From: Deltaproteobacteria bacterium
Lineage (GTDB): Bacteria > Myxococcota_A > UBA9160 > UBA4427
NCBI GenBank assembly: GCA_002691205.1
Contig: NZHD01000051.1
Span: 2,901-66,900, forward strand
Reading direction: 5' to 3'
Length of the DNA stretch: 64,000 nucleotides
Shown: in pieces, positions 38,740 to 64,000 of the stretch
How the letters are laid out: every line of letters starts with the position of its first letter
Position numbering within the stretch: position 1 is the first letter of the stretch
Translations under genes and position numbers: made by a program
The notes under the pieces: model-generated
What the model was told of the DNA's origin: nothing
The model's database searches: none
Seen by the model: the letters and a program-made list of their open reading frames with translations, nothing else

Positions 38740-39836
38740 CTCGGCGAAGGACTTGAAAGTTCGGCTAAGGCCCAGTGCGCGTGTTCAGCGAGCAAAGGAT
38801 CCTGCCCCTCGGCAAAGCGTTGAATGAGCGGACGCAGTTGCTCATCCTTCCGGTTGCCCGCGGCCACCAGAGCGTTCCGCATGAGACCCCGATACCCCGA
38901 CCGACGCAACGCGGTGCCCCGGGTCGCTTCGCGCCACTGGGCTTCATCTAAAGAGAGAACCCAGTGAAGTTCGGCGTCGACCCAACGCGGGTCCGGCCGA
39001 AGCCGCTCCCGCAGGCCCAAAGGGTCAGGGAGTTCTCGTTGGTCTGGCTTCCGATTCCATGGACAAACGTCTTGACACACATCGCATCCAAAAATCCATT
39101 CCCCTTGCGCGTTTCTTAACCCCGGCTCGGTGACCCCTCGGTCTTCAATGGTCAAATACGAGATACAGCGACGCGCATCGAGCACATACGCATCCACAAA
39201 TGCGTCGGTGGGGCATGCATCCAGACAGGCTCGGCAAGTGCCGCAATGGTCGGTTTCAGGGACATCAAAATCGAGTTCTAAATCGGTCATCACTACGCCC
39301 AGTAACAATCGAGAGCCGAGTTCTCGATCAATCAAACATGTATTTTTCCCCTGCCAACCCAACCCGGCCCGCGCTGCATAAACGCGTTCCAAAACAGGCC
39401 CCGTGTCCACATAACAACGCGTTGAAACCTCATGACCCGCCAATGCTTGCATGCCGATCCCAAGCGCTTTGACACGGTCAAGTAAAACCTCATGGTAATC
39501 CGCCCCCCCCGCGTACCCGGCCACACCTCGCCCCGTCGAGGAATCGCCGCCTCCTTGAGCCGATTCAGGAGAAGGGTGAGCCAGCGCGAGCGCCACGATG
39601 CTTCGTACTCCCGGCATGAGTTTCTCGGGTGAAGCTCGCTCAGACGCACGCTCGGCCATATACGTCATGGACCCGGCGTAGCCTCTCTCGAGCCATTCGG
39701 AAAGGAACTCCGTTTCAAGGCTCTCCTGAGGCGAACAAATTCCGACTCGATCAAAACCCAAGGCCTGGGCGAGAGAACGCACTCGATCAGATAGTGTGGG
39801 CGCCCTCTGCGTTGGCTTCACTTCAAGCTCGCTCAC
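38736..39836 (-). CDS. queG: tRNA epoxyqueuosine(34) reductase
   Basis: Two ferredoxin-type clusters (CGTCRACLDACP, CDVCQDVCPWN) and a C-terminal HEAT-like region. GTG start overlaps the exosortase stop (GTGA at 39833-39836). Confidence 0.85.
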   Translation of the reverse strand: MSELEVKPTQRAPTLSDRVRSLAQALGFDRVGICSPQESLETEFLSEWLERGYAGSMTYMAERASERASPEKLMPGVRSIVALALAHPSPESAQGGGDSSTGRGVAGYAGGADYHEVLLDRVKALGIGMQALAGHEVSTRCYVDTGPVLERVYAARAGLGWQGKNTCLIDRELGSRLLLGVVMTDLELDFDVPETDHCGTCRACLDACPTDAFVDAYVLDARRCISYLTIEDRGVTEPGLRNAQGEWIFGCDVCQDVCPWNRKPDQRELPDPLGLRERLRPDPRWVDAELHWVLSLDEAQWREATRGTALRRSGYRGLMRNALVAAGNRKDEQLRPLIQRFAEGQDPLLAEHAHWALAELSSPSPS

Positions 39837-40675
39837 GACACCGCATTTTCACCGCTTGACCGGCGGTCCACCCAGCGAAGAAAAGCCCCCATGCCCAACA
39901 AGGCGCCGCAGGCGCACAGGTACGTAAAAATACCCACCCACTCGTGAATCGCACTACCCGTTGCCGCCTCGACGCCCGCGGTCTGTGCCATCTGTACAGA
40001 GAGAAGAACACGAGCGAGGTTGCCCAGTAAGGCGACAGGCAGAACGGTCAGGATAAGAAGGATGCGCCGGAGCAATCGGTGATCGGTGAAATAAGCCAGA
40101 ATCACACCCAGAGGAACCAAAGTCAGCAAGGAAGTAATGCCACTGCAGGCTTCCGCCACAAAAAGCTGATCGCCACCGGGAAGTTCGATCACATTGCCCC
40201 TGCGCAGGACCGGATCTCCCATCGCATGCAAAATGCTGGTCCCCAATTCGCTCACCCAAAGTTGTAACTGCCCCGTCAGAGCCGCCAGCCATGGCTCGGG
40301 CCAAGGCACCATAAACAGCAGAAAACCGATGGGGAACATTAAAGTCTTGAGCCAAAAACGACCACGCAGCAGAAGCACCCCTCCCGCCACCGAAGCCACC
40401 ACTGAAACGCCCACCCAGGTCATGGACCCCACCAACCAACCAATCAGATAGACCGACAAAGCTCCAGCCAGCACCCAAAGGCCTCGAATATCCCAATCCG
40501 AATCAAGCAAAGGGAGGACTCTCCGTTTGCTGCTCGCGGCCCACAACGCGACTAGGGGGATGAAATAACCATGCGAATAGTACGGAGAAGCACTCCAGAC
40601 CTCCGCCAGAGCGGCGAGTCCAGGAGCCAACACCAAAGCGAGCAATCCCACTAAGACCCAGTCCATTGTGCGCAT
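39833..40675 (-). CDS. Exosortase (EpsH/Xrt family transpeptidase for PEP-CTERM proteins)
   Basis: About 8 TM segments. Family catalytic motifs FVAEACSGITSL (Cys), LLGNLARV (Arg) and SAIHEWVGIF (His). I start at ATG 40675 (MRTMDWVLVGLL...). The 154-aa N-terminal extension in the track ORF is non-hydrophobic and overlaps the opposite-strand sulfotransferase. Confidence 0.8.
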   Translation of the reverse strand: MRTMDWVLVGLLALVLAPGLAALAEVWSASPYYSHGYFIPLVALWAASSKRRVLPLLDSDWDIRGLWVLAGALSVYLIGWLVGSMTWVGVSVVASVAGGVLLLRGRFWLKTLMFPIGFLLFMVPWPEPWLAALTGQLQLWVSELGTSILHAMGDPVLRRGNVIELPGGDQLFVAEACSGITSLLTLVPLGVILAYFTDHRLLRRILLILTVLPVALLGNLARVLLSVQMAQTAGVEAATGSAIHEWVGIFTYLCACGALLGMGAFLRWVDRRSSGENAVS

Positions 40676-40840
40676 AGCCGCTTTCGCTCCCCTTCGATTA
40701 CTGCCGAAGTCTACCCGGTTCATCGGGACAGTGGAGGCCAGAGTTGAAGCCCTTTGCGTAAAACCCTCTCCTGTGAGAGGCTTTCCCTCGAAGATCGTAA
40801 AAAAAGTCCCCACCCTCACGGAATATGGAGAAAAAAGAGC

Positions 40841-41851
40841 GTGCAAGAACAGCTGGTGTTTATAATCGGAGCGCCTCGTTCTGGATCCACCCTGCTCGCC
40901 CGAATGCTCGGGGCGCATAGCGAAATCCATGCCCCCGCCGAGCCTCATCTGCTGACTCCCCTCGCCCACCTTGGCTACTACGAGCGCGTGGACGAAGCCC
41001 CTTATGATCCAATTATCAGCCAACTTGGCATCCGCGAATTGGTGCCTGCGCTTCCCCATGGCGAAGCCGATTACCTCAAAGCACTGCGCAGCTACACGGA
41101 TGACCTCTACTCGGGACTGCTGGCCAATACAGGAGCCCACCTCTTGCTCGACAAAACGCCGGCCTATGCGTTAGTCCTCGACTTTGCGGCACGACTCTAT
41201 CCCAACGCACGCTACGTTGTCCTCACGCGCCATCCCATGGCCATCTGGTCTTCGGTCATCGAGTCCTTCTTTGACGGCGATCACGAAATGGCCCACAAGC
41301 ACAACCCTGTGATCGAACGGTATGTGCCTGCCATTGCAAAATTTCTGCAAGATCCACCCGTACCCATTCATCACATTCCCTACGAATCTCTCGTTAAGGC
41401 ACCGGAAGAGCACATGCGTTCGGTGAGTGAATTCCTCGGTATTGAGTTTGAGGCCTCTATGGTCAATTACGGAGACGGCCAGTCCCAAAATGCCGCCGCT
41501 CGAGGCCTCGGCGACCCCATGAAAGTGGCCACCGAAAAGCGCCCCACGACCGGATCCCTGGCCAAATGGGCCGAGCAGTTAAACGGAAGGCCCGAGCGAG
41601 TTGCCCAGTGTCGATCCATCTTAAACCGCTTAGATGATGCAGACCTCGCGACCTGGGGCTTTTCTCGACAAGAGATCGAAGATCAACTCGCAGCGGTGGA
41701 CCCCGCCGGCCCCCGCGCAGCCGGCCCCAAACTCAGTCGCCATGTCCTTGAACGAAAGCTTCTGCTCGCCTTGCGTCGCAGAGTGGGCGAAAATTGGTCC
41801 GGCCGCGTAGTCCGCCGAGTCAGAGAGATCTGCGACCTTCTTCTACGTTAG
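40841..41851 (+). CDS. Sulfotransferase family protein
   Basis: PAPS 5-prime phosphosulfate-binding loop IIGAPRSGSTLLARML and a later RHP motif region. GTG 40841 lies 10 nt after a GGAG. The track ORF starts at 40754. Confidence 0.7.
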   Translation: MQEQLVFIIGAPRSGSTLLARMLGAHSEIHAPAEPHLLTPLAHLGYYERVDEAPYDPIISQLGIRELVPALPHGEADYLKALRSYTDDLYSGLLANTGAHLLLDKTPAYALVLDFAARLYPNARYVVLTRHPMAIWSSVIESFFDGDHEMAHKHNPVIERYVPAIAKFLQDPPVPIHHIPYESLVKAPEEHMRSVSEFLGIEFEASMVNYGDGQSQNAAARGLGDPMKVATEKRPTTGSLAKWAEQLNGRPERVAQCRSILNRLDDADLATWGFSRQEIEDQLAAVDPAGPRAAGPKLSRHVLERKLLLALRRRVGENWSGRVVRRVREICDLLLR

Positions 41852-51180: not shown

Positions 51181-52884
51181 CTAGGGCCAACGGGCGAACA
51201 CTCGAAACGAAAGACCATGATCTTGAATCCCGAGGTCGCCAACCGGTGCAAAATCAAGCAGTTGCGCGCCATAGCTGAACTCGGCTCTGAACCACGGAGT
51301 GGGAGACCAGATGGCGTTGACACCTACGCTCGCCAGATTGGTATCTCCTCCGCGTCCCGACCGGCCGTGGCTCCAAGAGCGCCCAAAATCGGCAAACGGC
51401 CCCGCTCGGAGAACACTTCGCCCGGAAGGCTCCAGGCGCAAAGGAAGAGACAGTTCAAAACCCAGCGCATATCCGTTATCGCGCACAACGGCATTCTCAC
51501 GGTAACCACGCACACTGTAACGGCCCCCGATCGCATACCGCTCAAAAGGCAAAAGAGGATCCAACGCCAGCTGAACACTGCCTCTAAACCCCACTTCTAT
51601 TCCACTCTCTGCATGTCTCCATCGCCACTCGGCTTGCCCAAGCCAAGCCGCAAATTCTGCGGTGTCCGTCTCTCCACTCGTCGCCCCCAAGATATCTAAA
51701 CCCACACTCCATGTGGAACGCAAAGCTAAGGCCTGATTCGGGCGCTGGGTGGTCCACTCTTGATAAAATCGCAGAACACTGTCGCGGACCTCACCCTCCG
51801 CATTCGCTGCATCCGAAAAAGCAAACGGAAAACCGCCCACAGTGGAGCGACTCTGCCTCCACTCTCCACGGACTCCCACGACGAGAGACGACCCATTCGC
51901 CGACCAAAGCCGTTGGGTCAGGTCCACGGCTCCCATCCAATACGTACTATCGACATCAAAGCCCGAAAGACTTCCATCGACAATCGCCGCATCCGTGTAA
52001 CGAAAGTCCACAGCCAGCTCCGTTCCCCAATTGGAAACAGGCACGTCATAGTGAACCAAAATGTCTCGCAATCCCTCGGAGAGACCCAAAATGGCCCCCA
52101 GCCTATCTCCCTGGCCTATGGGATTCAGCAGCCCCACCGAGAGGTGGCCGGCCATCTCTCCAATCAAAGGGTTTAATTCATTTCCGAAATCGAGAGCCCC
52201 AGTAAAGCGACGACTCTCCACGACCTCAACCTCAAGAATCGCCTCACCTGCCTCCATTCCTGGAACGAGACGAGCCCGTAACGTTCGAATCCCCGGCTCC
52301 GCCTCAAGCGACTTCAGTCGTCGCTCAAGGGTAAAAGCATTCAGAGGTTCGCCCTCAAGACCCTCAAGGCGAGACTCTAAATACGTCGCGCGATAGTGGC
52401 CTTCGCCGCGCACAACCACACGGCCGAGTCGGCCTTCGATCACTTCAAGCCGGAGGGCTCCGGCCGTGACGTCCTGATCCGGCCAACGGACTTGTGTATT
52501 CACGTAGCCCGCTTTGATGTAGAGCCCCGCTAGGCTCGATCGCAATGTCTCAATTTGCTCGCCATCAAGAACGCGCCCCATAAATCCCTGGGTCAGTCTC
52601 GCAATCACCGCTGGGTCAAGCACCGTATTGCCGACAACATAAATTTCATCGACGCGCACACGCGCTCCGCCCGACATCGTCGTCGAACGCTCCGCCGGAA
52701 TCGGTGGCAAACGAATGGGCGCAGGGCCCATCAACGCCTCACCCACAACCGGGATCGGGCGGCGGCCCGGAAAGTCGGGCACCGACGGAACCTCCTGGGC
52801 CAAAGAAGCCGAGGCCTGTAAAAAAAACCACGCCATGGCGACCCAAAGGCCTGCTCTCCCCAACGAGAACCCTGGCCTCACCAA
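51181..52884 (-). CDS. ShlB/FhaC/HecB-type two-partner-secretion outer-membrane transporter (TpsB)
   Basis: Signal peptide (...FFLQASASLA|QE). POTRA_2-like segments (VRVDEIYVVGNTVL...GYVNTQVRWPDQDVTAGALRLEVIEGRLGRVVV). Beta-barrel ending in an aromatic residue (FRVFARWP). TTG/GTG start directly abuts the tpsA stop. Confidence 0.85.
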   Translation of the reverse strand: MVRPGFSLGRAGLWVAMAWFFLQASASLAQEVPSVPDFPGRRPIPVVGEALMGPAPIRLPPIPAERSTTMSGGARVRVDEIYVVGNTVLDPAVIARLTQGFMGRVLDGEQIETLRSSLAGLYIKAGYVNTQVRWPDQDVTAGALRLEVIEGRLGRVVVRGEGHYRATYLESRLEGLEGEPLNAFTLERRLKSLEAEPGIRTLRARLVPGMEAGEAILEVEVVESRRFTGALDFGNELNPLIGEMAGHLSVGLLNPIGQGDRLGAILGLSEGLRDILVHYDVPVSNWGTELAVDFRYTDAAIVDGSLSGFDVDSTYWMGAVDLTQRLWSANGSSLVVGVRGEWRQSRSTVGGFPFAFSDAANAEGEVRDSVLRFYQEWTTQRPNQALALRSTWSVGLDILGATSGETDTAEFAAWLGQAEWRWRHAESGIEVGFRGSVQLALDPLLPFERYAIGGRYSVRGYRENAVVRDNGYALGFELSLPLRLEPSGRSVLRAGPFADFGRSWSHGRSGRGGDTNLASVGVNAIWSPTPWFRAEFSYGAQLLDFAPVGDLGIQDHGLSFRVFARWP

Positions 52885-55347
52885 TCAGTCCCTATCTGCC
52901 AAGCGCCAACGTCCACCGCAGCCTGGATCGAATCCATCCAGTTGCTGACGCACACTGCCCCCTTGAGGCGAAAGCGTCTGAGAGGTCGCGCCTTCTGAGG
53001 AGGCGCCTCTCGGACCTGAAGGGAGATAGCCATCGAGAGCGGGCGGCCTCGATGGCCGACCTTCTATGACGAACGAACTGTCGCCCACATCTCTTCGCGC
53101 TGCACACTGAGCCCGCAGCAATGCTGAGACATCCAAGTACGAAACGGGAAGAGGCTCCACCTGCCCGGCCACATCCACCTGAGGCGCGTTGATGGTCACC
53201 ACACCGTCTACACCCCCATCAAATGAAGAGGGGATAATCGCTGAATCCGCTGACTCAAGCAGGTAGTCGGCCGAGAGATCGATGTTTCCACCGCTGCCCT
53301 CTTTAGCCGAACTCACCAATTCGCTTTCGTTCAGAACGAGATACTGCGGCCCTCCCTCCTGACCCACTCGGATATTCCCCCCGCTTCCGTCCTCTTTGCT
53401 GACCTTCGTCTCCACCTTACTCCGAATGAACTCGATGCGAGCGCCCGCCGCGATCGTGATTTCGCCGCCCTCAGAGGCCGCCAATGCCTCTGCGTTCAGC
53501 TCGGCATCGCGCATAAAAATATTGTGATCGGCCATCACGTTGAGTTCACCGGCAGACGCCTCACCGAGGCTACTCACGGTCACAAAGCCCCCGTCTACGA
53601 TCGATATGTTCTCAGCCTGTAAGAAAACAGAACCCGAAGCTCCATCATCCGCCCGAGCGGCGATTTCGCTTCCCTGACCCGAGAGAGAACCACTCACAAG
53701 AAGGTCACCCTCTAGCCTCACATCCACACTGCCCGTATCCGCAGGCGTTTGAAGCGTACTGGCGGAAATCGTTCCGCCTTGGGTGACCTCAAGACTCCCC
53801 GCGCGAACCGAAATATCGCCGGCCTTTGCGCCTGGAAAAGTCAAGGCGGACCCCTCCTGATAGAGAGCCCGAGCTAAGAGTCCAGACCGCGCGTAACTCC
53901 AGGCCCCGTCTTCCCAACTGCGCAAGACGCCCGAGATCACGACCGACCCCGCCATGTCCACGCGAATATCGCCGCCTACTAAATCCCGGTACACCGGCGT
54001 GCGGATCTGTCCTCCATTGACGAGACGGAGATTTCCTCCCTCCACCCAGATGGCACCGGCCGGCCCTCCCCCAGGCCGGGGCAGTGAAAACAACACACTG
54101 CCCTCGTCAAGGCTCACTTCCTCGGACCCCACGACATGCAGGCCCACCGGACTTCCAGACGACCCTTCGTTGAGACCTTCGGTTTGGAGCCCGATAACGT
54201 TCACCGAAGACCCTCCTGTGAGTGAAACCGTCTCGCCTCGAATCTCCACGGGGGCCGCCGAGGACTCAATCAGAGAGACCCCCTCATTTCCAGCGGCAAG
54301 CAAAACCTCAGGGGCCGAGATGCGAATCGCAGGCCCCGAGACAAGCCCCTCATCGACGAACCTTTTTAAGGTCGACGCTTCCAAAGTCATTGAATGACCG
54401 GCTTTCAAATCCATAGCGGGCCCTTGGGCATTCCCTCCGGAATAAATCTCCGTGCCCCCCACTAGACGAAGTACGCCTCCCTCAAGAAGGACTCGACCCC
54501 CTCCTGCCCCGCCTCCCATTCGAGAGTCCAAACGTGAGCCTTCAAGCTCAATCAAAGCCTCCTGACCTACCTGCGCCAAAGGAAGATTTGATTCGCCGCC
54601 CACCGAAAGAGGAACTTCCACCGCGCTGTGCCCGGTGGCCACGAGATGAATCACGGATCCAGGCACCTCCACTTTTCGGGAGATCAAACCCACTTTTCCC
54701 GCCACGATTCTAAACGCGTTAAAGCTCCCCACACCGACAAAGCCCGGGATGGAAGGATCTGCAGTCAGGGTCACACCGGGCAACGGCGCATCGCCCTCGG
54801 TGCCTTCAAAAACCAACGAAACCGGCTCTCCCGAGCAGCACCCGCTCGCAGACCACGGGCTTCCGTCCACCGGGAATGCGCCGTCCGAAAAACGCACCGC
54901 ATTGGCGGTGCTCAAGGTCAGCCCTCCGGACAAATTATAGAAGGCACCGCTTGGTCCCACCGTGATACCGTGAGGGCTTAAGAAATAAAGATCTGCCCCA
55001 ACGTGTTCCGAAAACACCGAGCCATTGATCAGGGCTGGACTTTCACCCGTCAATCGAACAAAGACATGATCGAACAAGCCCGGCCCTGCAAAGCCCACAT
55101 TCTCAGAAGGGTCCACCGAAAACTCGGAAAAGCTGTGAAAAAGATTCCCACCCGCTTGCTCACCGCGCGTCGAATCAACCTCGTATGTGTAAGCCTCGCT
55201 CCCCGGCGCAACACCGCTCCCCCCAGCCCCCACCGTGCCATCAAAAACGACCTGGGTCCACGCCGCCTCGACAAAGAAGAGCAACAGGAGCAGAGCGCTC
55301 CAAATCGGCCGAGCGATTCCTCGATTAAAAAAAATGAGTCGAATCAT
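52885..55347 (-). CDS. TpsA-like exoprotein with filamentous-haemagglutinin N-terminal (TPS) secretion domain and beta-helical body
   Basis: Signal peptide, then the TPS-domain hallmark GGNLFHSFSEFSV (codons at 55129-55146) and ALINGSV...DLYFLSPHGITVGP, a divergent NPNGI box. The rest is Gly/Ser/Val-rich repeats. ATG 55347 shares its A with the upstream TGA (TGATG). The track start is TTG 55350. Confidence 0.8.
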   Translation of the reverse strand: MIRLIFFNRGIARPIWSALLLLLFFVEAAWTQVVFDGTVGAGGSGVAPGSEAYTYEVDSTRGEQAGGNLFHSFSEFSVDPSENVGFAGPGLFDHVFVRLTGESPALINGSVFSEHVGADLYFLSPHGITVGPSGAFYNLSGGLTLSTANAVRFSDGAFPVDGSPWSASGCCSGEPVSLVFEGTEGDAPLPGVTLTADPSIPGFVGVGSFNAFRIVAGKVGLISRKVEVPGSVIHLVATGHSAVEVPLSVGGESNLPLAQVGQEALIELEGSRLDSRMGGGAGGGRVLLEGGVLRLVGGTEIYSGGNAQGPAMDLKAGHSMTLEASTLKRFVDEGLVSGPAIRISAPEVLLAAGNEGVSLIESSAAPVEIRGETVSLTGGSSVNVIGLQTEGLNEGSSGSPVGLHVVGSEEVSLDEGSVLFSLPRPGGGPAGAIWVEGGNLRLVNGGQIRTPVYRDLVGGDIRVDMAGSVVISGVLRSWEDGAWSYARSGLLARALYQEGSALTFPGAKAGDISVRAGSLEVTQGGTISASTLQTPADTGSVDVRLEGDLLVSGSLSGQGSEIAARADDGASGSVFLQAENISIVDGGFVTVSSLGEASAGELNVMADHNIFMRDAELNAEALAASEGGEITIAAGARIEFIRSKVETKVSKEDGSGGNIRVGQEGGPQYLVLNESELVSSAKEGSGGNIDLSADYLLESADSAIIPSSFDGGVDGVVTINAPQVDVAGQVEPLPVSYLDVSALLRAQCAARRDVGDSSFVIEGRPSRPPALDGYLPSGPRGASSEGATSQTLSPQGGSVRQQLDGFDPGCGGRWRLADRD

Positions 55348-58300
55348 CAACTCCCCGCAGCGGCCTCACACTGGTCGGACTCAAACTCAGCCGGCGGCGA
55401 AGACTGCCCCAGGGTCCGCTTGTGAATCACAGCGTCACGAATCGTACATTCTGCGTCATTGTCCACGCTACACCGCTCCCCCACTTCAGCGTCCACTGGG
55501 TCCACCAACTGAGAAAGTAGCGCAGCTAGATCCACCGATTCACTGCCCGAAATCCATCCGTCGCCGGTCGCCTCGCCACACTGACAAGCATCGCCGATGC
55601 CCTCAGGAAGGTTCGAATCGATCCACTCCATCCCGCCCGAATCAATCTGTGAGGTATTGGCCGTGTAAATACAGTTGTCGTCTTCATTCCGTCGCTCGTC
55701 CTCATCGACATCTTCCGACATTGTGCTTGCAACGCCATTCGACGACACGCCGCAGGGCTCATCACACGCAAACAGGACACCCGGGTCGTAGTACTGAGCA
55801 TCCGACAGAAGAGGCTGACTTGCACACCACGAAACCGGAGCGGCGAATTCAGAGGCATCCGGCAAAAGCAAGCTCGGCAAACGATCCTCCACGCTGCAGC
55901 CGGGCGAATACTCGGGCTCACCCGGTTCGGGACAAGGGCTCAGATCCACACTCGGCGATATATTCAAACGCCCCACGCACTGAAGGTCCTCTAGTCCAGG
56001 CGTCAAGGCCCCTAAACTCGGCTCGGTCATGCTCAGATTCCCCTCGACCACGAGAAAGAGATAACCGTCGGTGGCACTCGATGGGTCCGTATCCTCCCAA
56101 GCAAATGATGCGCCGTCTACATCCCCGGAAGAGTAGTCAAGGCCGTCCGCATTTACCGAGGAGTAAACGGCATCCTCAGAGGAAGCGTCGTACAGCGAAG
56201 ACGCCCCATCGTCACACCACATCCGTCCGTCCGCATCGAGAGTCCCGTCGCAATCTTGCCATGAAATCGTGTGATCCCACTGACCGTCGCTATCGTCATC
56301 AACCAGGGGCGGTTCCGCGGCCACCGTCAAACGATGCAGTAAATACGACGGCGAAGTGAAACAAAGCTCAAAAACACTCACATCATCAATCGCCTGCCCC
56401 ACTAACGGGAGGAGTTGGGCTTCCACGCAGGTCGAACTCGACGACGCCCCCGAAGTTCTCATCATTCGAGAGGAACGGCACGGTGTGGCGGTCCGAGAGG
56501 ACATCACACGAAAACGGCTGATTGCATCCGTGTCGGAAACCACAGGAAGAATCCCGCCCGCACGGCCCATTGAAACATTCACAGCCGGGCGCGAGGCGGG
56601 TCGAGGTATGGGCGGAGCCCATACGAGATCGCCCATATGCTCGACCACACCTGCCGTGCACAAGTCCTCGGTCGCTTTCAACAAAACATAGAGGGTGTCT
56701 GGGCGCAGACCGCCGAAGCCCACCTGACTATTCGCTCCCCAAGCGTCGGTCACGAAGACCCCGGACTCGCTCCGATCCAGAACTGAACCTAGATATGGAC
56801 TGCCCGTCGGAACCTGACTACATCCACTGCATCCCATACACAGACTCTCAGGCGCCTCACACACTGAACCCACGGGTCCGCCAAACGTGAAATCATCCGC
56901 AGAAGCACCCAGTGGCGTGAGCGCCACCAACATTTCGTCAATGTCGGCCACAGCGCCGCACTCAACCTCGAGCCTCCAACGATCTTCCCCTAGGCCGTCT
57001 GGGTCTTCAATCAGGTGAACCACAGTTTCTTCGCAGGCGTCTCCCACGCCATCTTGATCCGCATCCGCCTGAGCTGCGTTGGAAACTCGCAGGCAACTAT
57101 CGCAGCGGTCCCCCACCGAATCCCCATCAAAGTCCAGCTGATCTGAATTCGGGACGGTGGGACAGTTATCCACAAAATCGGAGTGACCGTCCTGGTCTGA
57201 GTCCTGCAAATGCAGTTGCCAGACCACACCCCCATCACTGGGCGTGCCCACCGGAACCGCATTGGCTCCCACCCACAGTTCCGGCTCGCCGTCCCCGCTC
57301 ACGTCGGCCACCGCGACAGATCGGCCAAACAGAGTCGAGGCCTCGATCACGCCCCCAGGCACATCGAGCTTGTCAATAAAAACGCCCCCCTCGATGGTGC
57401 TGCCCCCCATCAAAGGCATCATTTGCAAAACGACAACGCCCCCTTCTTGCTGTGTTCCGCTGCCATAAGCCCCGGCCAAAAGGTCTGTGTCGCCATCCGC
57501 ATCGATATCCCCGAGCGGCGTCAGCGAATTTCCAAGACCTGAAACAGAAACGTTAGCGGCCGGAAAGCGAGCCACACCCGAATCGATGGTGTCCTTCACG
57601 ATCCCCCCCGACTGCGAGGTCAAGGAAACGATTTGAATGGCTCCTCTCTGATTGGGCCCTCGACCGGGTGAACCGACGGCCAGTTCGACGCCCGTTCCTC
57701 CATAAAGATTCCCCAAAAAGGCTAAGGATGCTCCAAATTGATCTCCGTCAGTGAGAGAAGCTGAGCCCAAAGATCCATTGCCCAGAGTCGTAGCGGACTT
57801 GAGCGTACCGTCTGATTTCAAGTTCAGAATCTCAATCGCGCCGCAACCCAACACACAGCCGATAGGCGCATCTGGATGGCCAACCACGACATCCGAAACG
57901 CCGTCGCCGTCTAAGTCTCCAATCCCTGTGACCGATTTAGGCGCGTAGGCCATCTGAAACCGAACCGTACTCCTCACTTCAGGCAGAGGCGAGAGCGCCG
58001 TACGAGCGCTTAAGAAAAGAATAAAAACGTAGCGTCGCCCTGGAGCCACAACGGCCAACTCCGTGACTCCGTTGCCGTCTAAATCTCCGATCGCGGCCAG
58101 ACCGGCTCCAAATCCATCGCCGGCCAGAATAATACTTTTGTATTCAGGCGTATCGGAACCAAACTGAATGACGTCATCCACCGTCCCGTCACGCCGCATG
58201 AGCAAAAGCAGGACCGCACCCGCGTTATTGTTATAGCTCGGTGCGCCCAGGGCGAGGTCGGACACTCCGTCTCCATTGAGGTCACCCACGGCGGCCACCG

Positions 58301-59138
58301 ACTCGCCCAGCTTCCAATCGAGCGAAAGGTTGAGCCCATCGGGCGTAATGGGGTTCACCGTCTCAATTTCATCGGCGCGAATAGCGTTTGCCGAACTCAA
58401 AAGGAGGCTCAATCCCAAAATTAAACCGGCTGCACCTCGGACTCGACGACGTGCAAGAAACCCTAAGCCGGTGAGCCCTGAAAGCAGCAGCAAACCAAAA
58501 CCGGGTTCGGGCACTAAAATCTGTCCCGCGTCCACTGAGACTTCATCCATACTGACCTGGACCGCTGAACTCGTCGCCATCACCATCAACTCGGGCGGAT
58601 CATGCTCATCGCCCACCGAGGTCCACGCCAAATCCAAAGTCCCTACACACTGAGAAGAACCCGCACTGAGAGGACTCGTATCGTACAACCAACTCAAACC
58701 CAGTTCGCTAACAGGATGGGCCGCGAGTTCAGCATCAGTTTTTGAGGCCACTAAAACGATCGATCCACACTCCACAAAACCCTCAATCAGAACCGGATTT
58801 TCCGTGTTCGCCGGGACTTCAAGATCAAGCTGCCAGGCACAAAGTTCATCGCCGGAACCCGTCGCTGCGTCGCAGTCGGCCGCGGGGCTTGTCGAAGCCG
58901 TCGCCCCCACCTCCAAGCAGAGAGTAAAACTCTCCGTGGGCGCCGAAGGAATGGAAAAAACCACACCTGAACTCTCCACGGGAGCCCAGACCGTCGCCGC
59001 GTCTTCAATCGCGCAACAACCCGAAACCGATCCCTCGCAGAGATAAAACTCGGGGGTTCCTGCGAAGCCGATCCCCTCTCCCAGCCACAGAATCAGTGTG
59101 GCCCATCCCCAAATGCGTCGTATTCTAGCTCCCGCCAT
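55347..59138 (-). CDS. Giant multidomain surface protein: signal peptide, Cys-rich N-domain, internal PEP-CTERM signal, second signal-peptide-like helix, six FG-GAP (integrin-alpha-like) repeats, thrombospondin type-3 repeats, Cys/Asp-rich C-region
   Basis: FG-GAP calcium motifs at a ~60-aa period: [80 protein letters not shown] and [16 protein letters not shown] (nt 57261-58286). TSP3 reads [35 protein letters not shown] (nt 57030-57206), with a second copy near the C-terminus ([16 protein letters not shown]...GIGDACQCG). Confidence 0.75.
58383..58451 (-). other. Signal-peptide-like segment immediately after the PEP-CTERM signal (aa 230-252)
   Basis: RRRVRG (n-region), [13 protein letters not shown] (h-region), SANA|IRADE (AxA-type cleavage site). 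Confidence 0.55.
58434..58514 (-). other. Internal PEP-CTERM sorting signal (aa 209-235 of the 1263-aa ORF)
   Basis: [27 protein letters not shown] is the complete tripartite PEP-CTERM pattern (PEP motif, TM helix, Arg cluster), but it is followed by 1028 more in-frame codons rather than a stop. Confidence 0.7.
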
Positions 59139-59265
59139 ATTCTCATCCGCTTATCATCATCAGCAGCTGCGGTCCTGAGCCTCTATTCTACTCGCTTTAG
59201 CCCTCAGGATGTCGCAAACCTTGTTTTTGTGGTGCCCCTGAAGCTGAAGTCGGTGACGATTAAAA

Positions 59266-59294
59266 AATCGGATCAGAAAAATATGAATCCGATT
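59266..59294 (-). terminator. Weak terminator-like hairpin between the CHAT gene and the giant gene
   Basis: Inverted repeat AATCGGAT (59266-59273) / ATCCGATT (59287-59294) with a 13-nt loop, followed on the minus strand by T5-6 (plus-strand A-run 59262-59267). The stem is AT-rich, so only moderate termination is expected. Confidence 0.35.
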
Positions 59295-59317
59295 GCCCCT
59301 CCGGGGGACATCGGCCC

Positions 59318-61651
59318 TCAAAGCCAACTTCCGATCATCTGAAAAGGGGCCCAAAAAGCTGGGTGCCGATAGCGAAAATCCTGCCTGAGTTCTCTTTGTG
59401 CCTGGGCCAGCGCCTCGGCCCGAGAAACCCCTGCGGTCAACAGATGCCGATAAAAAGCGGTCACCAGCCGAGCCGTCGCCGGATCATCCACACTCCAGAG
59501 GCTTCCAAGAGCGCTTCGGGCCCCCGATTGAACAGCGATGCCCGACAAGCCAAGCGCAGCCCGTGGGTTGCCCTCGGCCGTTTCGCACGCGCTCAGGGTT
59601 AGCAACTCAAGGGGCTGCTCACGAAAACGAAAAGTTCCGATGTCCTCCGCCAAACCCTTCATTGAGAGTCGGCCGTCCGCTGTCACAAGAAAAGCACTCT
59701 CCTCAAGTCCAGAAAAAACAGCATGAGTCGCCAGATGAACCACGCTGTAGGGCTCCTCGGCCAGGCGTTCCCTTAAACGGGATCGACGAAAGGCAGCATT
59801 CATTAAGACATCGCCCCCGATCACCGAATGAACTTCTTCGATCTCAAGAGCCACATTTGGAAGAGGCGCAAAGCCGTCAGTGGCTTCGCTTAAACCAGCC
59901 AGCAAGGCACGAGGCCCTTCTTTTTGAAACGGACGTGGGTCTGTTAACTGAAGCCCAGGTGTCAGCGCCACCGCATAGTGATCCACCAAAAATGATTGAC
60001 CGTCGTGAAGCGCTGCCATGGGAATGGTCAACAAGGCGCCCGAAGGAACGAAGACCAGCGTTTTAATCTCGCGCTCTTGCAGCGCCCCCTTCAGGGGCTC
60101 AATCAACCAAGTGTAGAGCCGTTGAGCGTGAGGCAAATAGCGGCGGGTCCCCGCCCGCTCAAGGGTTTGCCGAAACAAAGCCACTTCCGTCTCGACCAAG
60201 GCCCTCGAAACCGCTTTTTCATAGGCCACAATTTCCCCAGTCGGCCAGCTAACCAAGACCACCAAGCGGTCGGCCAATGAGACGGGGTAGAGAATGGCCG
60301 CCTCAGGAGAAACCGCTTCGATACTGGCTAAGCGGTCCTGCAATGCGTCCACGCATTCGTCTTGAAAATAGTCCCTCAATTCGGCGGCTTTGAATCGCTC
60401 CAAGCCATCGCGTGCGCGACGAAGCAGACTTTGACGCACGGCCGAATCTGAAGTCGCCTGAGCCTGATCCAAGAGCAGCCCAACGAAGGCTTCATAGATC
60501 GGCTGAACCTCCTGCTCAAAGGAGGCCCCCTGCCCGTCCCCGCCCCACGGCGTTTGAGTCCGCAGGGGCGCCAAGGCTTCAATGGCCCTTGAGTACGCCG
60601 AGATCGCCTCGGGCCTCCGGCCGAGTTCATTCAAAAGTTCGCCGCGCTGTGACTCAAGTCGATACAATCGAACCGGGTCCGCGATCCGTCTCGCCCGTCG
60701 AAGTGCTCGATTCGTCAATTCCAGGGCTTCACCCCGGCGTCCTTCCATTTGATACAGGGCCCCAAGTTCCCTCAAGGCCACGGTCGCCACGGACTCCGCC
60801 CCCACTTCATCGGCGGTCTCAAGCCCGGCATACAACCATTGTGAGGCCAACACGCGCGATTCCGCTGACGGCACCCCCAGGCTTCTTTCCTGATGACCAA
60901 GATTGACCCAGAGTTCAGCCCGCACATACGAAGGCGGTAAAGTCTCCACTCGAAGGGCCGCTTCTTTTAAAAAAGACTGAGCCCGCTCCGGTCCACTCGG
61001 GGCCGAAACACGAGCCGCATTCCCAAGCGCACGCGCCTCAAGAGCCGAGTCTTGAGCGAGTCCCCCTGCCAACGCACTGGCTTCAAAGTGAGCCAAAGCA
61101 TCCTCGGGAAGCCCCTTCAGCGCCGCCAGAACTCCGAGGTCATTTTCTGCTTCCGCCGTCACTCTCACTTGATCGAAAGTACGCGCTCCGTGGATCGCCC
61201 GGGTGAGCCAGAGAGTCGCTTGCGCCCTCTCGCCTAGGGCTAAAGCCGAAGCGCCTAATGAAGCTTCGATGGCCGGCCGCTTGTTGGATAAATCTCTCTC
61301 ATCTGAAATGGTGAGTGCACGCTCCAGATGCGTCATCGAGGAAGGGACCTCGCCCACCGCTCGCTCACAGCGCGCCAAATCCAGCAGACTCTCCACTTCA
61401 AGGCTCGCCTGGCCCCGGGCCTTCTCCACCGCTTGGGCATAAAGGGCCCGCGCTGACAAAAACTGGCCCTGAGATTCCGCCTGGGCCGCTTTCGCTCTGA
61501 GGCCAGAGACCTCAGACTGACTGCCCACGGTTTGCCCACGAACAAGGCTTGGGGCCATCGCTAACAAAGAGAGGATCAAGCTCAAGAAAAAGAATTCCCG
61601 AAGATAAGATCTCTTCACAAACATAAAGCCCAGACATCGCGATGGGTGCAT
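59318..61651 (-). CDS. Exported TPR-repeat CHAT-domain (caspase-like) protease
   Basis: Sec-type signal (MFVKRSYLREFFFLSLILSLLAMAPSLVRG|Q), about 400 aa of TPR-like helices, then a CHAT domain with a His/Cys dyad in VVHLATHAVFSG (His codon 59723-59725) and LLTLSACETAEG (Cys codon 59585-59587). Confidence 0.8.
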   Translation of the reverse strand: MHPSRCLGFMFVKRSYLREFFFLSLILSLLAMAPSLVRGQTVGSQSEVSGLRAKAAQAESQGQFLSARALYAQAVEKARGQASLEVESLLDLARCERAVGEVPSSMTHLERALTISDERDLSNKRPAIEASLGASALALGERAQATLWLTRAIHGARTFDQVRVTAEAENDLGVLAALKGLPEDALAHFEASALAGGLAQDSALEARALGNAARVSAPSGPERAQSFLKEAALRVETLPPSYVRAELWVNLGHQERSLGVPSAESRVLASQWLYAGLETADEVGAESVATVALRELGALYQMEGRRGEALELTNRALRRARRIADPVRLYRLESQRGELLNELGRRPEAISAYSRAIEALAPLRTQTPWGGDGQGASFEQEVQPIYEAFVGLLLDQAQATSDSAVRQSLLRRARDGLERFKAAELRDYFQDECVDALQDRLASIEAVSPEAAILYPVSLADRLVVLVSWPTGEIVAYEKAVSRALVETEVALFRQTLERAGTRRYLPHAQRLYTWLIEPLKGALQEREIKTLVFVPSGALLTIPMAALHDGQSFLVDHYAVALTPGLQLTDPRPFQKEGPRALLAGLSEATDGFAPLPNVALEIEEVHSVIGGDVLMNAAFRRSRLRERLAEEPYSVVHLATHAVFSGLEESAFLVTADGRLSMKGLAEDIGTFRFREQPLELLTLSACETAEGNPRAALGLSGIAVQSGARSALGSLWSVDDPATARLVTAFYRHLLTAGVSRAEALAQAQRELRQDFRYRHPAFWAPFQMIGSWL

Positions 61652-61670
61652 TAAGCCATTCCGCCTCTGT

Positions 61671-63113
61671 TCACTCTATGCTCGAATCGATTGGCACTCG
61701 GATCTCGACCTGTTCCAATAAATCGCTCCGCGCCTTTTCAACGCCTTCGACGTCTAGACCTGCTTCGGTCCAGTCTGAAAGCTGCCTGAAGGCATCGTAC
61801 CAATACCCTTGCTCGGCCAGCAGGTGCGCCTGCGCGGCCAGTTCGGCCTCCTCCCACTTCACTTGCTGAGCGGGTGTTCGCTCTTGAAAAACCAGCGCGG
61901 CACTCGCTCTCACATCACGAGAACGACGCGCAGCGTCGACCACGGCCGCCGCCTGCCAGCGATACACAACCCCAGCTTGAAGCTCCACACCGAGATCCTC
62001 AAGCGACACCGCGTGAAGCCCCGCTGCCTGAGGTCCGCCTCTCTGAAATTCAACCAGGGGCTCAATCGAAACATCGTCCGCGACCGTGATCTCAATGGGA
62101 AGGGACGTAGGCTCCGAGAGCCAGTAATAAAGCGTGGGGGAAGTCGAACTCGTCCAACCCACATGATCGGGGCCTAAAGCGTACACTTCGAGTGACGAAG
62201 TCCCTCCCGCCGAACGCACTTTCCCATAGGTTCGAACCGACGGCCCGCCCAAAAGGGGAATCTGATCCACTCCATATCGAATTTCCCCAGAAGGCCAATT
62301 CGAAGCCAGGAGCGCGATATCGGGGCCCGCCACGAGGGGCGAAATGTCCGAACTCGGCGACTCAGGCGTGCTCGCGACCTCCACCGTTTTCGGGGGCAAG
62401 ACTTCGGCTTCGCGCGGGGACGGGGCCCTCATCTGATCCACCTCGGGTTGGCTCTCGTTCAGGGCCAAAGCACCTGGGGAGACACCCTTCGCTGCCTCGT
62501 CAGAAGCCAATTCCTGTAGATCAACCGGATCAAGGGGAACCAACGGACTCTCGGGGGCCGGCCTCGTTGAGCTTTCGGCCAGAGTCGGCGCGGGGACCAT
62601 GGGCGCCTCGTCTCTGACCCATAGCCAACCCAGAGGCAAAATCAGAATCGCGAGCGCCGCTGCGGCAAACGTGGGCGAGACCACCCAACCACCGAGGGCC
62701 TCTAGGGCGTTTGAGAAAGCTTTCCTCCACTCCGTCCCAAGAGACACTGAAGCGTCTGGCGTGGACGCCTTCGATGCTACTCCGATCGCGGCAAAATCAA
62801 AACGTTCCAGGACCGTCAACTCCGTCGTACAGGGTGCACACGCTTCCAGATGAGTTTCAAGACCTCGGCGCACGTCAAAATCGAGCGTGGCCGGTGCCTG
62901 CGCGTACGCGAGCAAGACCTCTTCCGAAGGATGATCTCCGGCCGAACTCGGCGCCGCATGTCCCAGCGCCTGCTCAAGTTGCATGCCTCGGCGAACTTCC
63001 CGGGTGCAATCCGAGCAGCTCGGATAATGAGCTCGAAAAGCCGCGTAGCGCGAATCCTCCCGCTCAAGCAGGAAATCCACTACATCAATTTCATCGAAGT
63101 CTTCACAAGGCAT
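61671..63113 (-). CDS. Membrane anti-sigma factor with tandem zinc-binding (HxxxCxxC) N-domains and a periplasmic DUF928-like C-domain
   Basis: Canonical N-terminus MPCEDFDEIDVVDFLLE (ATG 63113; the track ORF starts at TTG 63206). Motifs HYPSCSDC (63006-63029) and HLEACAPC (62832-62852). One TM (62616-62687). Pro/Ser-rich linker. C-domain (61692-62204) reads PTLYYWLSEP..IEITVADD...GVVYRWQAAAVVD...LLAEQGYWYDAFRQLSDW, matching my memory of the DUF928 pattern. Confidence 0.7.
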   Translation of the reverse strand: MPCEDFDEIDVVDFLLEREDSRYAAFRAHYPSCSDCTREVRRGMQLEQALGHAAPSSAGDHPSEEVLLAYAQAPATLDFDVRRGLETHLEACAPCTTELTVLERFDFAAIGVASKASTPDASVSLGTEWRKAFSNALEALGGWVVSPTFAAAALAILILPLGWLWVRDEAPMVPAPTLAESSTRPAPESPLVPLDPVDLQELASDEAAKGVSPGALALNESQPEVDQMRAPSPREAEVLPPKTVEVASTPESPSSDISPLVAGPDIALLASNWPSGEIRYGVDQIPLLGGPSVRTYGKVRSAGGTSSLEVYALGPDHVGWTSSTSPTLYYWLSEPTSLPIEITVADDVSIEPLVEFQRGGPQAAGLHAVSLEDLGVELQAGVVYRWQAAAVVDAARRSRDVRASAALVFQERTPAQQVKWEEAELAAQAHLLAEQGYWYDAFRQLSDWTEAGLDVEGVEKARSDLLEQVEIRVPIDSSIE

Positions 63114-63202
63114 GGCCTGTGTCCTTTGTGCCGTTCGGTCCGCAACGCATAAGTTTTTTATCCCCCTCGCTGTGGACAGTCGTTCCCACATCGCGAATCG
63201 GA

Positions 63203-63778
63203 TCAACCTGAATCAAGAAAATCAACAAGATCCCCTCTTAATTGTGTGAGGCCATCCCTGAGGTACCGTTTAAGAGACCCCAGAGGAATCCCGGTATCCT
63301 CAGCCACTTGATCATAGGTCCGTCCCTGGACGTGAACCCCCAAAACCACAAGACGCTGTTTTTCGGGAAGTCGCTCAAGGGCTTGAGCGAGATCTCGGCT
63401 CATTTCGCCCTCTCCCGGGTCGTCCGCGAGCTGAGCCTCATCTGCCCCGACCACATCCTCCCAAGGAAGAGTCTCATTTTCTTTGGTGCGAGTCTGGGCC
63501 TTCAACCGATCGATAAACTTGAAACGCGCCGTGGTTCTCAGATACCCCACCACCGCCCGCCGGTCCCGAATTTTTCCGTCACGTAACGCCAAGGCCGCCG
63601 CCACAATGACCTCTTGTACCAAGTCATCCCAGTCGCTGCGAAAATCGTAGGCATTCCAACGGCCCAAAAACCCGTTGACCAAACGAGTCAGCCTAGCCAG
63701 AGCAAGCGCGTCTCCTGCCAGCAAGGCTTCGAGTGTCGCCCCCCAGTCTGTCTGACCGCCTGCGGCATTTCCCGTCAT
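63203..63778 (-). CDS. ECF (group IV) sigma-70 family RNA polymerase sigma factor
   Basis: Region 2 (DWDDLVQEVIVAAALAL, RAVVGYLRTTARFKFID) and region 4 HTH (LPEKQRLVVLGVHVQGRTYDQVAEDTGIPLGSLKRYLRDG). I prefer ATG 63778 or ATG 63865. The track start 63955 would overlap the divergent gene. Confidence 0.8.
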   Translation of the reverse strand: MTGNAAGGQTDWGATLEALLAGDALALARLTRLVNGFLGRWNAYDFRSDWDDLVQEVIVAAALALRDGKIRDRRAVVGYLRTTARFKFIDRLKAQTRTKENETLPWEDVVGADEAQLADDPGEGEMSRDLAQALERLPEKQRLVVLGVHVQGRTYDQVAEDTGIPLGSLKRYLRDGLTQLRGDLVDFLDSG

Positions 63779-63910
63779 TCTCACAAGTATGCTCAACTCT
63801 TGAGGCCGTCGCACCCGGCGAACAAACGCACCCAGACCTCGCGCCAAGCCCCGATCTCGAGTCATCCAAAAGATTAAGCATCTAAGCCTTAAACCATTAC
63901 CCTTTGACCT

Positions 63911-64000
63911 ATGGAACTCTGGATCCCTCTCAGCATCGCAGCCGCTTTTCTTCAAAACATCCGCTCAGCGCTGCAAAAGTATCTAAAAGATGCTCTCTCT
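63911..64000 (+). CDS. Partial N-terminus of a membrane protein, possibly EamA/DMT-type permease (continues beyond the window)
   Basis: My translation from ATG 63911 is MELWIPLSIAAAFLQNIRSALQKYLKDALS, which is hydrophobic then amphipathic and resembles DMT-family N-termini. Only 30 codons are visible. Confidence 0.3.
   Translation, partial: MELWIPLSIAAAFLQNIRSALQKYLKDALS

Follow-up and report, generated by a model that had tools for sequence, protein, structure and literature searches.

The 64,000-nucleotide stretch of DNA analyzed here (the window; Deltaproteobacteria bacterium, contig NZHD01000051.1, positions 2,901 to 66,900) encodes a protein of 1263 amino acids (aa) in which a PEP-CTERM sorting signal lies within the chain and is followed directly by a segment with the form of a signal peptide. 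The source is an uncultured marine bacterium resembling the myxobacteria. We refer to this protein as the precursor and to the double signal as the junction. The open reading frame (ORF) occupies 55347..59138 of the minus strand, on which all the features of the precursor given below lie. The product resembles the 'hypothetical protein' MAI78636.1 of a deltaproteobacterial/Myxococcota metagenome-assembled genome (MAG), and differs by two residues from the representative of its sequence cluster (P0001). Apart from its FG-GAP and thrombospondin type-3 (TSP3) repeats, the precursor belongs to no named family.

The chain begins with a Sec signal peptide (aa 1-26, 59061..59138), assigned by inspection. 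Residues 2-20 are helical in the AlphaFold2 (AF2) model, and cleavage is placed before GTPE, at an A/GTPxPYLC boundary (a slash marks a predicted cleavage site) that is aligned in the homologues. The following N-module (aa 27-208, 58515..59060) is a Cys-containing beta-sandwich that includes the motif GDELCAWQ and, according to AF2 and Foldseek, has a cohesin-like fold. The internal PEP-CTERM signal (aa 209-235, 58434..58514) is placed by hidden Markov model (HMM) scores, alignment and AF2, and the overlapping internal signal peptide (aa 230-255, 58374..58451) by alignment, the invariant A255 and AF2.

Beyond the junction lies an FG-GAP (integrin-alpha-like) beta-propeller region (approximately aa 258-644, 57207..58367) found by Pfam and AF2. 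PF01839 matches five stretches of the precursor with 70.4 bits (cut-off 22.1, E = 1e-19), and in the AF2 model of aa 1-650 the region is all-beta with a predicted local distance difference test score (pLDDT) mostly between 80 and 95. It is followed by thrombospondin type-3 Ca-binding repeats (approximately aa 645-704, 57027..57206; Pfam TSP_3 and NCBIfam). Four stretches match TSP_3 with 23.6 bits, slightly below the cut-off of 25, and the NCBIfam MtsC model matches the same region with E = 3.7e-18. The Cys-rich middle region (aa 705-1139, 55722..57026) is conserved in the alignment of full-length homologues, and no Pfam match was found for it. In mid-adhesin there is a conserved low-complexity linker rich in Ser and Arg (aa ~870-905, ~56424-56531; pattern RPAxAC..S....R..RS..SS, then GVEAILLPLV) where a protease, such as the adjacent CHAT protein, might cut. 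The chain closes with a dockerin-like module (aa 1180-1263, 55350..55601), recognized by comparing a profile with PDB sequences, and one extra TSP3-like repeat precedes it. No two-partner secretion (TPS) domain (PF05860) was matched in the precursor; that domain is found instead in the neighboring 821-aa protein.

The internal junction

Residues 209-235 contain all the parts of a PEP-CTERM signal in the usual layout, with the motif VPEP (58503-58514), a hydrophobic transmembrane (TM) helix (aa 213-229, 58452-58502) and an Arg-rich cluster, RRRVR (aa 230-234, 58437-58451). The signal had been recognized from sequence alone in an earlier note on this DNA, and the HMMs bear this out for the isolated 40-aa segment, which scores 22.0 bits with PF07589 (cut-off 20.7) and 20.1 bits with TIGR02595 (cut-off 16). 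The 252-aa N-terminal piece falls slightly under both cut-offs (16.9 and 14.9 bits), and for the full-length precursor neither family is among the listed matches. Several NCBIfam PEP-CTERM families place their last profile positions on residues 200-232 of the full-length chain. When all six frames of the window were scanned for P[ED][PSA] followed by a hydrophobic stretch and at least two R/K, the site at aa 209-235 was the only one returned. A further 1028 residues follow the signal, which is therefore far from the extreme C-terminus.

The putative internal signal peptide begins at residue 230, away from the N-terminus of the chain. Its basic n-region is the cluster RRRVRG, shared with the PEP-CTERM signal. 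There follow a hydrophobic h-region of 12 residues, within the usual range of 7-15, and a c-region in which positions -3 and -1 are small, reading ANA/I (after aa 252) or the family-conserved IRA/D (after aa 255). AF2 draws helices at 214-229 and 234-248, and the second of these looks like a signal peptide and not a TM anchor. As Ala255 is invariant in the family alignment, the predicted signal peptidase site is more likely to be IRA/DE than ANA/IR. A lipoprotein (lipobox) reading was ruled out, there being no conserved Cys past the h-region. Both sequence and Pfam uphold the earlier description of signal-peptide-like h- and c-regions directly past the PEP-CTERM signal, with the FG-GAP/TSP3 region beyond.

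The third Arg of the cluster, R232, is encoded by CGA (58443-58445), and the codons past the Arg cluster read GTC CGA GGT GCA GCC GGT TTA ATT TTG GGA TTG. That CGA is one transition from TGA, as the earlier note remarked, is true and has no bearing on the question: the homologues all read through with different codons, and loss of a stop codon at this position was ruled out on these grounds. The only start-type codons past the cluster are the TTGs of L242 and L244, both within the h-region, in agreement with the earlier observation that no start codon with a proper n-region follows. Because there is no conserved start codon past the Arg cluster, the internal signal would be the sole export signal of the adhesin.

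Conservation of the junction and its origin by fusion

The same 1263-aa protein, its junction identical, is present in four cluster members, which come from NCBI (MAI78636.1), Logan and ENA assemblies. The whole precursor is spanned by five homologues with 52-55% identity (1231-1255 aa) and by a Myxococcota homologue at ~30% identity. In an alignment of seven full-length homologues, the most distant at ~30% identity, V209, P210, E211, P212, R230 and A255 are invariant, and both hydrophobic segments are retained with variable sequence. It had been asked whether the orthologous loci carry one gene or two. All carry one ORF covering both the N-module and the C-terminal module, which argues against two ordinary genes.

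The junction is found in relatives of quite different length, of ~900 aa, ~1550 aa (where the signal is at about residue 600) and 4717 aa, the last encoded on a complete Myxococcota chromosome. Across this range of architectures a PEP or PES motif persists, together with the basic cluster and the AxA site. We are highly confident that the junction is a conserved functional architecture. PES replaces PEP at residue 214 of P0020, and PES or PEA is found at the C-termini of P0141 and P0167. Among GTDB genomes full-length relatives were found in Myxococcota MAGs only. Two distant relatives have the gene as a pair of overlapping ORFs (L006 12553-12619, L009 12687-13117); the break comes after ~2.7-3 kb of the gene, well away from the junction, and reflects a frameshift or a sequencing error.

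The N-module has relatives that stand alone. A word-indexed search with the N-terminal profile gave only 2 matches, and an exhaustive HMMER search, used in its place, gave 140 proteins. Many of these, ~205 aa long, start with a signal peptide and close with a PEP-CTERM signal in its ordinary terminal position, and between the two they have the beta-rich module of the precursor with its GD/GxELC motif. The N-module itself is accordingly placed, by its sequence relationships, in a family of proteins that appear to be normal exosortase substrates. The standalone N-module protein P0151 has a gene of its own, the last in an operon that runs ShlB, a 1302-aa cargo, a TPS-domain protein and the N-module, and this cargo shares its C-terminal module with the precursor. 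The unfused cargo (L089, 1259-5167), with RCC1 repeats, TSP3 and a dockerin-like end, itself begins with an N-module-like domain, GGDEICQWAVRL.

The precursor thus unites two components that are encoded by separate genes elsewhere, which supports an origin by fusion. That N-module and cargo are fused here and separate elsewhere is a classical sign of a functional link. The fusion had earlier been suggested to be recent. The standalone proteins are in accord with a fusion, but retention of the junction to ~30% identity refutes a recent one.

The junction in other proteins

Collected from all the proteins retrieved in the analysis, 171 internal PEP-CTERM/signal-peptide sites are present in 112 proteins, a sample biased by the inclusion of the junction in the search profile itself. 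In the 170 internal junctions that could be analyzed the median length is 8 aa for the basic loop and 18 aa for the uncharged stretch, and small residues occupy -3 and -1 in 168 of them. The long proteins match the N-terminal profile in HMMER at its junction part only, several times per protein.

These polyproteins consist of unrelated exported domains in a chain, each unit being closed by a PEP-CTERM signal, the Arg cluster, a short hydrophobic stretch and AxA. Examples are P0129 (2500 aa, 8 sites), P0142 (6 sites), P0136, P0139, P0143, P0190, P0201 and P0232. Those with 3-8 junctions come from planctomycete and other metagenomic assemblies, the planctomycete ORFs holding 4-8 units, and several turn up again in independent assemblies. 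Within P0165 the internal h- and c-regions (..VGIGEVRA/DPIS) are homologous to the N-terminal signal peptide of the same protein (..VGVGEGRA/DPIS); such homology to a genuine N-terminal signal peptide holds for the junction as a class, and not for the precursor gene itself.

P0143 and P0190, of four units each, are adjacent on a 5-Mb planctomycete-like contig (L084, 5600-13900), where the DNA translates to the query sequence, and ordinary PEP-CTERM genes of a single unit lie on both sides of the pair. At this locus the PEP-CTERM segments are near-identical to each other (VPEPSTLALLLIGG.GLC). By sequence, the polyprotein ORFs look like in-frame fusions inside tandem arrays of PEP-CTERM genes, in which an Arg cluster would have replaced the stop codon, spacer, start codon and n-region.

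The exosortase

The window contains an exosortase gene of ~280 codons (39833..40672, minus strand; PF09721, TIGR02602). As listed (39833..41140) the ORF is over-extended upstream by ~155 codons, the true start lying near 40672. It matches PF09721 (Exosortase_EpsH) with E = 1.3e-52 and TIGR02602 with 151 bits (cut-off 105.6), and carries the Cys motif AEACSG; no named subtype was reached with the NCBIfam models. The gene lies 14 kb from that of the precursor, and ~10-14 kb away in the close relatives. Its orthologues (280-287 aa, 69-73% identity) are from Myxococcota MAGs and lie in the same neighborhood, which reads hisD ... greB, DUF502, sulfotransferase, exosortase, queG ... lptD. Since the exosortase is syntenic in the relatives, the enzyme required for the proposed processing is present and has been kept alongside the gene. 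No exosortase was found within 10 kb of the gene in the distant relatives that were searched.

The gene is flanked by housekeeping genes (queG, greB) and is not in an exopolysaccharide (EPS) locus. A divergent sulfotransferase gene (40754-41851, plus strand) adjoins it and is kept in the relatives.

A model for processing of the precursor

We propose that the precursor is a conserved helical-hairpin polyprotein that would be cut by signal peptidase I and by exosortase, and put the probability of this at roughly 60%. Of the three explanations offered earlier this is the one that best fits the comparative evidence, with the cleavages remaining predictions. The N-terminal signal peptide would export the beta-sandwich module of ~180 aa, which closes with what appears to be a genuine PEP-CTERM signal, consisting of VPEP, the membrane helix and RRRVR. 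The Arg cluster would remain in the cytoplasm and double as the n-region of the second signal peptide, whose short hydrophobic core would re-enter the membrane and restart export, now of the FG-GAP/TSP3 adhesin of ~1000 aa. Paired as a tight helical hairpin, the two hydrophobic segments would then sit in the inner membrane and leave both of the large parts of the protein outside.

This out-in-out topology, with RRRVR in the cytoplasm, can be predicted with good confidence, because the domains of both halves (in the C-terminal one FG-GAP, TSP3 and Cys-rich modules) are of extracytoplasmic kinds, and the C-terminal half lacks any further signal for export. Each of the two cleavages is, on balance, probable. 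Signal peptidase I would release the adhesin, most likely by cutting after A255 (or else A252). The exosortase encoded 14 kb away would most likely cleave at PEP and hand the N-module to its destination in the envelope; that such a cut is probable follows from the family of the N-module being normal exosortase substrates. In the last and weakest step, the freed adhesin with its dockerin-like end may re-dock on the anchored cohesin-like N-module.

A broader proposal, to which we would give slightly less than even odds, is that the PEP-CTERM/signal-peptide junction may be a general bacterial device for making polyproteins, and that in the present case an anchored cohesin-like module and a dockerin-ended adhesin re-associate. 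Exosortase and signal peptidase I, both embedded in the membrane, would each cut one side of the hairpin, and one ORF would give two to eight extracytoplasmic proteins, or even more, each sorted on its own.

The cohesin-like N-module and the dockerin-like C-terminus

The possibility of re-docking arises because the fold of the N-module is cohesin-like and the end of the adhesin is dockerin-like. The AF2 model of the N-module, built on an alignment of 19 sequences, is a confident beta-sandwich with a pLDDT of 82 and a predicted TM-score of 0.80. When it was compared with the PDB using Foldseek, cohesins filled the top 14 places, with E between 4e-5 and 1e-3 and TM-scores of 0.42-0.61.

The last ~85 residues of the precursor resemble a Cys-braced dockerin. 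A profile of 17 C-terminal modules (A5) was run against all PDB sequences, giving 19 matches at E<=10. Seventeen of them carry the name of a dockerin or of a cellulosomal protein that bears one; the remaining two belong to a 'serine protease' that has dockerin-type repeats in tandem. The best matches are to the Xyn10B dockerin (2CCL_B and 1OHZ_B, E = 1e-4), with both repeats aligned; type I dockerins are marked by a duplicated Ca-binding loop-helix (F-hand) segment of ~22 residues. Comparison of the module with a CelS dockerin using hhalign gave E = 3e-4 and a probability of 38%.

The dockerin-like module is present in 35 of the 60 proteins that have an N-module followed by more than 120 residues. 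Their cargos vary, including an FG-GAP adhesin, GDSL lipase, VWD and RHS, and in the GDSL lipase fusions the dockerin-like module sits right past the internal signal peptide. That the dockerin-like module was accompanied by the N-module in 35/35 cases among the retrieved proteins is partly an effect of ascertainment and was not used as evidence; only its frequency in the fused N-module proteins and the variety of cargos were used. The pairing of the two modules is suggestive, not strict. Docking of the adhesin on the N-module through binding of the cohesin/dockerin type is tentative, and we regard it as rather doubtful.

Many proteins with nothing else in common (loci L011-L081, for example L045, L021 and L039), from MAGs of Myxococcota, Gammaproteobacteria (Halieaceae), Binatia and Spirochaetales, have a module of the pattern GDxCQCG...RCSV...C.I.D at their extreme C-terminus, which Pfam Dockerin_1 does not cover. 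At one of these loci (L045, 1-10345) three consecutive genes end in such a Cys-braced dockerin-like module.

Evidence against the model

A number of observations weigh against the processing model or its docking step. The resemblance of the N-module to cohesins is at the level of the modeled fold only, with TM-scores of ~0.45-0.6. No match to Pfam cohesin (PF00963) was found at E<=10 in any of the 19 N-module members, an hmmsearch of PDB sequences with the N-module returned no cohesin, and hhalign against a CipA cohesin gave a probability of 0.1%. At the other end of the precursor, Pfam Dockerin_1 (PF00404) does not match the C-terminal module at E<=10. The subfamily of ~900 aa has the junction and lacks the dockerin-like end, many proteins with such an end have no N-module nearby in their genome loci, and the unfused L089 cargo carries its own N-module-like domain without a PEP-CTERM signal, so that the module can occur in cis without the junction. 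The model provides no route across the outer membrane for the freed adhesin. No other PEP-CTERM site was found in ~160 kb from the clade (the 64-kb window and ~100 kb of related loci); genomes with this sorting system typically encode many PEP-CTERM proteins. Lastly, the few PEP-CTERM regions with long tails were considered possibly non-functional by Haft et al. 2006 (PMC1569441).

Alternative explanations

The most serious alternative to the polyprotein is a double-pass inner-membrane protein, uncleaved or partly cleaved, whose two periplasmic domains would be anchored by both helices. In one variant exosortase frees the N-module, and the adhesin stays tethered by the hairpin with no cut by signal peptidase. 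Such a protein would have the same helical-hairpin topology as we propose, and could find partners in the other envelope proteins of the operon; the two cleavages that set our model apart are themselves predictions. Yet for a TM helix to be stable the second hydrophobic stretch is short, and a plain anchor would need neither the helix-breaker and small-x-small motif found in 168/170 junctions nor the invariant Ala of the precursor family. It also leaves the invariant VPEP unexplained. In the multi-unit chains, unrelated exported domains would have to cross the membrane 8-16 times if left uncut, and internal h- and c-regions of the class are homologous to real N-terminal signal peptides. We consider a double-pass protein unlikely.

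The junction might instead be an evolutionary relic of a PEP-CTERM gene fused to its downstream neighbor, with an internal signal that is decaying and non-functional. This would be in keeping with the opinion of Haft et al. on long-tailed regions, and with the PES of P0020. It is difficult to reconcile with a VPEP that is invariant in seven homologues down to 30% identity, with the persistence of PEP/PES, basic cluster and AxA from ~900 to 4717 aa, or with an exosortase conserved in synteny, and is very improbable. Still less probable is re-initiation of translation inside the ORF, by which two proteins would be made separately and the adhesin would acquire its own N-terminal signal peptide. 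A Met does stand just before the h-region in P0002 (RRRRGRAMSSS...) and P0004 (RRQTGRRMSSA...), but P0003, P0006 and P0023 have none there, the precursor gene has no ATG or GTG at this position, its in-frame TTGs are inside the h-region, and in no case is a basic n-region left downstream. An error of assembly or sequencing that joined two ordinary genes by erasing the stop codon or frameshift between them, which a metagenomic source and a CGA one transition from TGA might have suggested, is refuted by the four independently assembled copies that share the junction and by the single ORF at every orthologous locus, and its probability is negligible.

Relation to known systems

PEP-CTERM signals were defined as C-terminal, with fewer than 10 residues behind them in 87% of cases (Haft et al. 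2006, PMC1569441), and a 2023 preprint by Haft on C-terminal sorting signals does not mention internal ones. The precursor agrees with the PEP-CTERM/exosortase system (EpsH, XrtA-type; PMC1569441) in its PEP motif, TM helix, Arg cluster and N-terminal signal peptide, in coming from a genome that encodes an exosortase, and in a segment that scores above the TIGR02595 and PF07589 cut-offs. It departs from the norm in that the signal lies 1028 residues from the C-terminus and the Arg cluster is reused as an n-region, and the exosortase in the window has no named subtype and is outside an EPS locus. Our literature searches found no report of an internal, tandem or polyprotein PEP-CTERM signal, nor of a cohesin with a PEP-CTERM signal. 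The earlier opinion that such a use is previously undescribed stands for exosortase signals in the literature searched; for sortase signals there is a precedent.

This closest precedent is provided by the streptococcal Zmp/IgA1 proteases, which have an N-terminal LPXTG motif and a second hydrophobic segment that has been proposed as a second signal peptide. The two are not homologous, the Zmp proteases being sortase/LPXTG proteins of Gram-positive bacteria whereas the precursor is an exosortase/PEP-CTERM protein of a diderm. Moreover, the part of the precursor ahead of the motif is a folded module of 180 aa that also exists as a standalone protein family. Other polyproteins contain internal signal peptides. 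The Bradyrhizobium cytochrome b/c1 precursor FbcH is a polyprotein whose internal signal peptide is cut by signal peptidase. To our knowledge neither FbcH nor any viral polyprotein joins an internal signal peptide to a sortase or exosortase signal, and the bacterial examples are single cases, not a recurring cassette. In viral glycoprotein precursors an internal signal restarts translocation, with a proposed cut by signal peptidase, and several extracytoplasmic products result (bunyavirus review, PMC7926653).

In Ruminococcus flavefaciens, ScaE is a single cohesin that is anchored covalently by sortase and binds the dockerins of ScaB and CttA (PMC2930009, PMC5429695). It shares with the precursor a small cohesin or cohesin-like module with a C-terminal transpeptidase-type sorting signal, and a partner ending in a dockerin or dockerin-like module. 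ScaE and its partners are encoded by separate genes and their binding is proven, whereas the precursor holds both in one ORF with binding predicted, its resemblance to cohesin being at fold level only and that to dockerin a weak profile match. The integrin-alpha-like propeller and TSP3 Ca-binding repeats are shared with Myxococcota FG-GAP/TSP3 adhesins such as MtsC, which has a MYXO-CTERM (NF047638); the score of the MtsC model on the precursor is 65.6, far under its cut-off of 350. The related Myxococcota FG-GAP proteins P0047 and P0093 have an ordinary C-terminal PEP-CTERM signal. In contrast to such adhesins, the sorting tag of the precursor is on an N-terminal module, and the adhesin has a dockerin-like end in place of a tag. 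Thus the precursor would combine known kinds of element, namely exosortase sorting, an internal anchor of the Zmp type and cohesin/dockerin display.

Current models and annotations treat PEP-CTERM as a tag confined to the C-terminus, internal copies being dismissed as probably non-functional, and ORFs like that of the precursor are labeled 'hypothetical' or merely 'PEP-CTERM domain-containing'. If the model is correct, the recurrence of internal copies joined to a signal peptide would alter both the search for these signals and the annotation of ORFs. It suggests that exosortase reads the motif, helix and basic cluster without a free C-terminus, as is thought for sortase in the Zmp proteases. 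The precursor would be a natural exosortase substrate with a built-in read-out, in the form of two predicted products and a small leftover hairpin peptide, for an enzyme whose chemistry and acceptor are still to be defined. Should docking also occur, diderms would have a cohesin/dockerin-like surface display with anchor and cargo from one gene, and Gram-negative Myxococcota a cellulosome-style anchoring tied to a CHAT/TPS/TpsB operon.

Gene neighborhood

The precursor gene is part of a conserved cluster of six genes on the minus strand (51181-63955), observed at loci L001-L010, L034 and L089. Upstream are genes for an extracytoplasmic function (ECF)-type sigma factor (63203-63955), a DUF928 protein (61671-63206) and a secreted protease-like CHAT/TPR protein (59318-61651), all assigned by Pfam and synteny. 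Downstream are a TpsA-like protein with a TPS domain (52885-55350) and a TpsB transporter of the ShlB/FhaC type (51181-52884), both assigned by Pfam. The homologues with 52-55% identity are syntenic, with the order ECF sigma, DUF928, CHAT/TPR, precursor gene, TPS-domain protein, ShlB-type transporter and hisD. A literature search found no paper that mentions both DUF928 and CHAT. CHAT, TPS and ShlB remain linked to the gene even in the Myxococcota relatives at ~30% identity. Elsewhere in the window, at 27508-29076 on the plus strand, there is a gene for a wax-ester synthase/diacylglycerol acyltransferase (WS/DGAT), with no relation to the junction.

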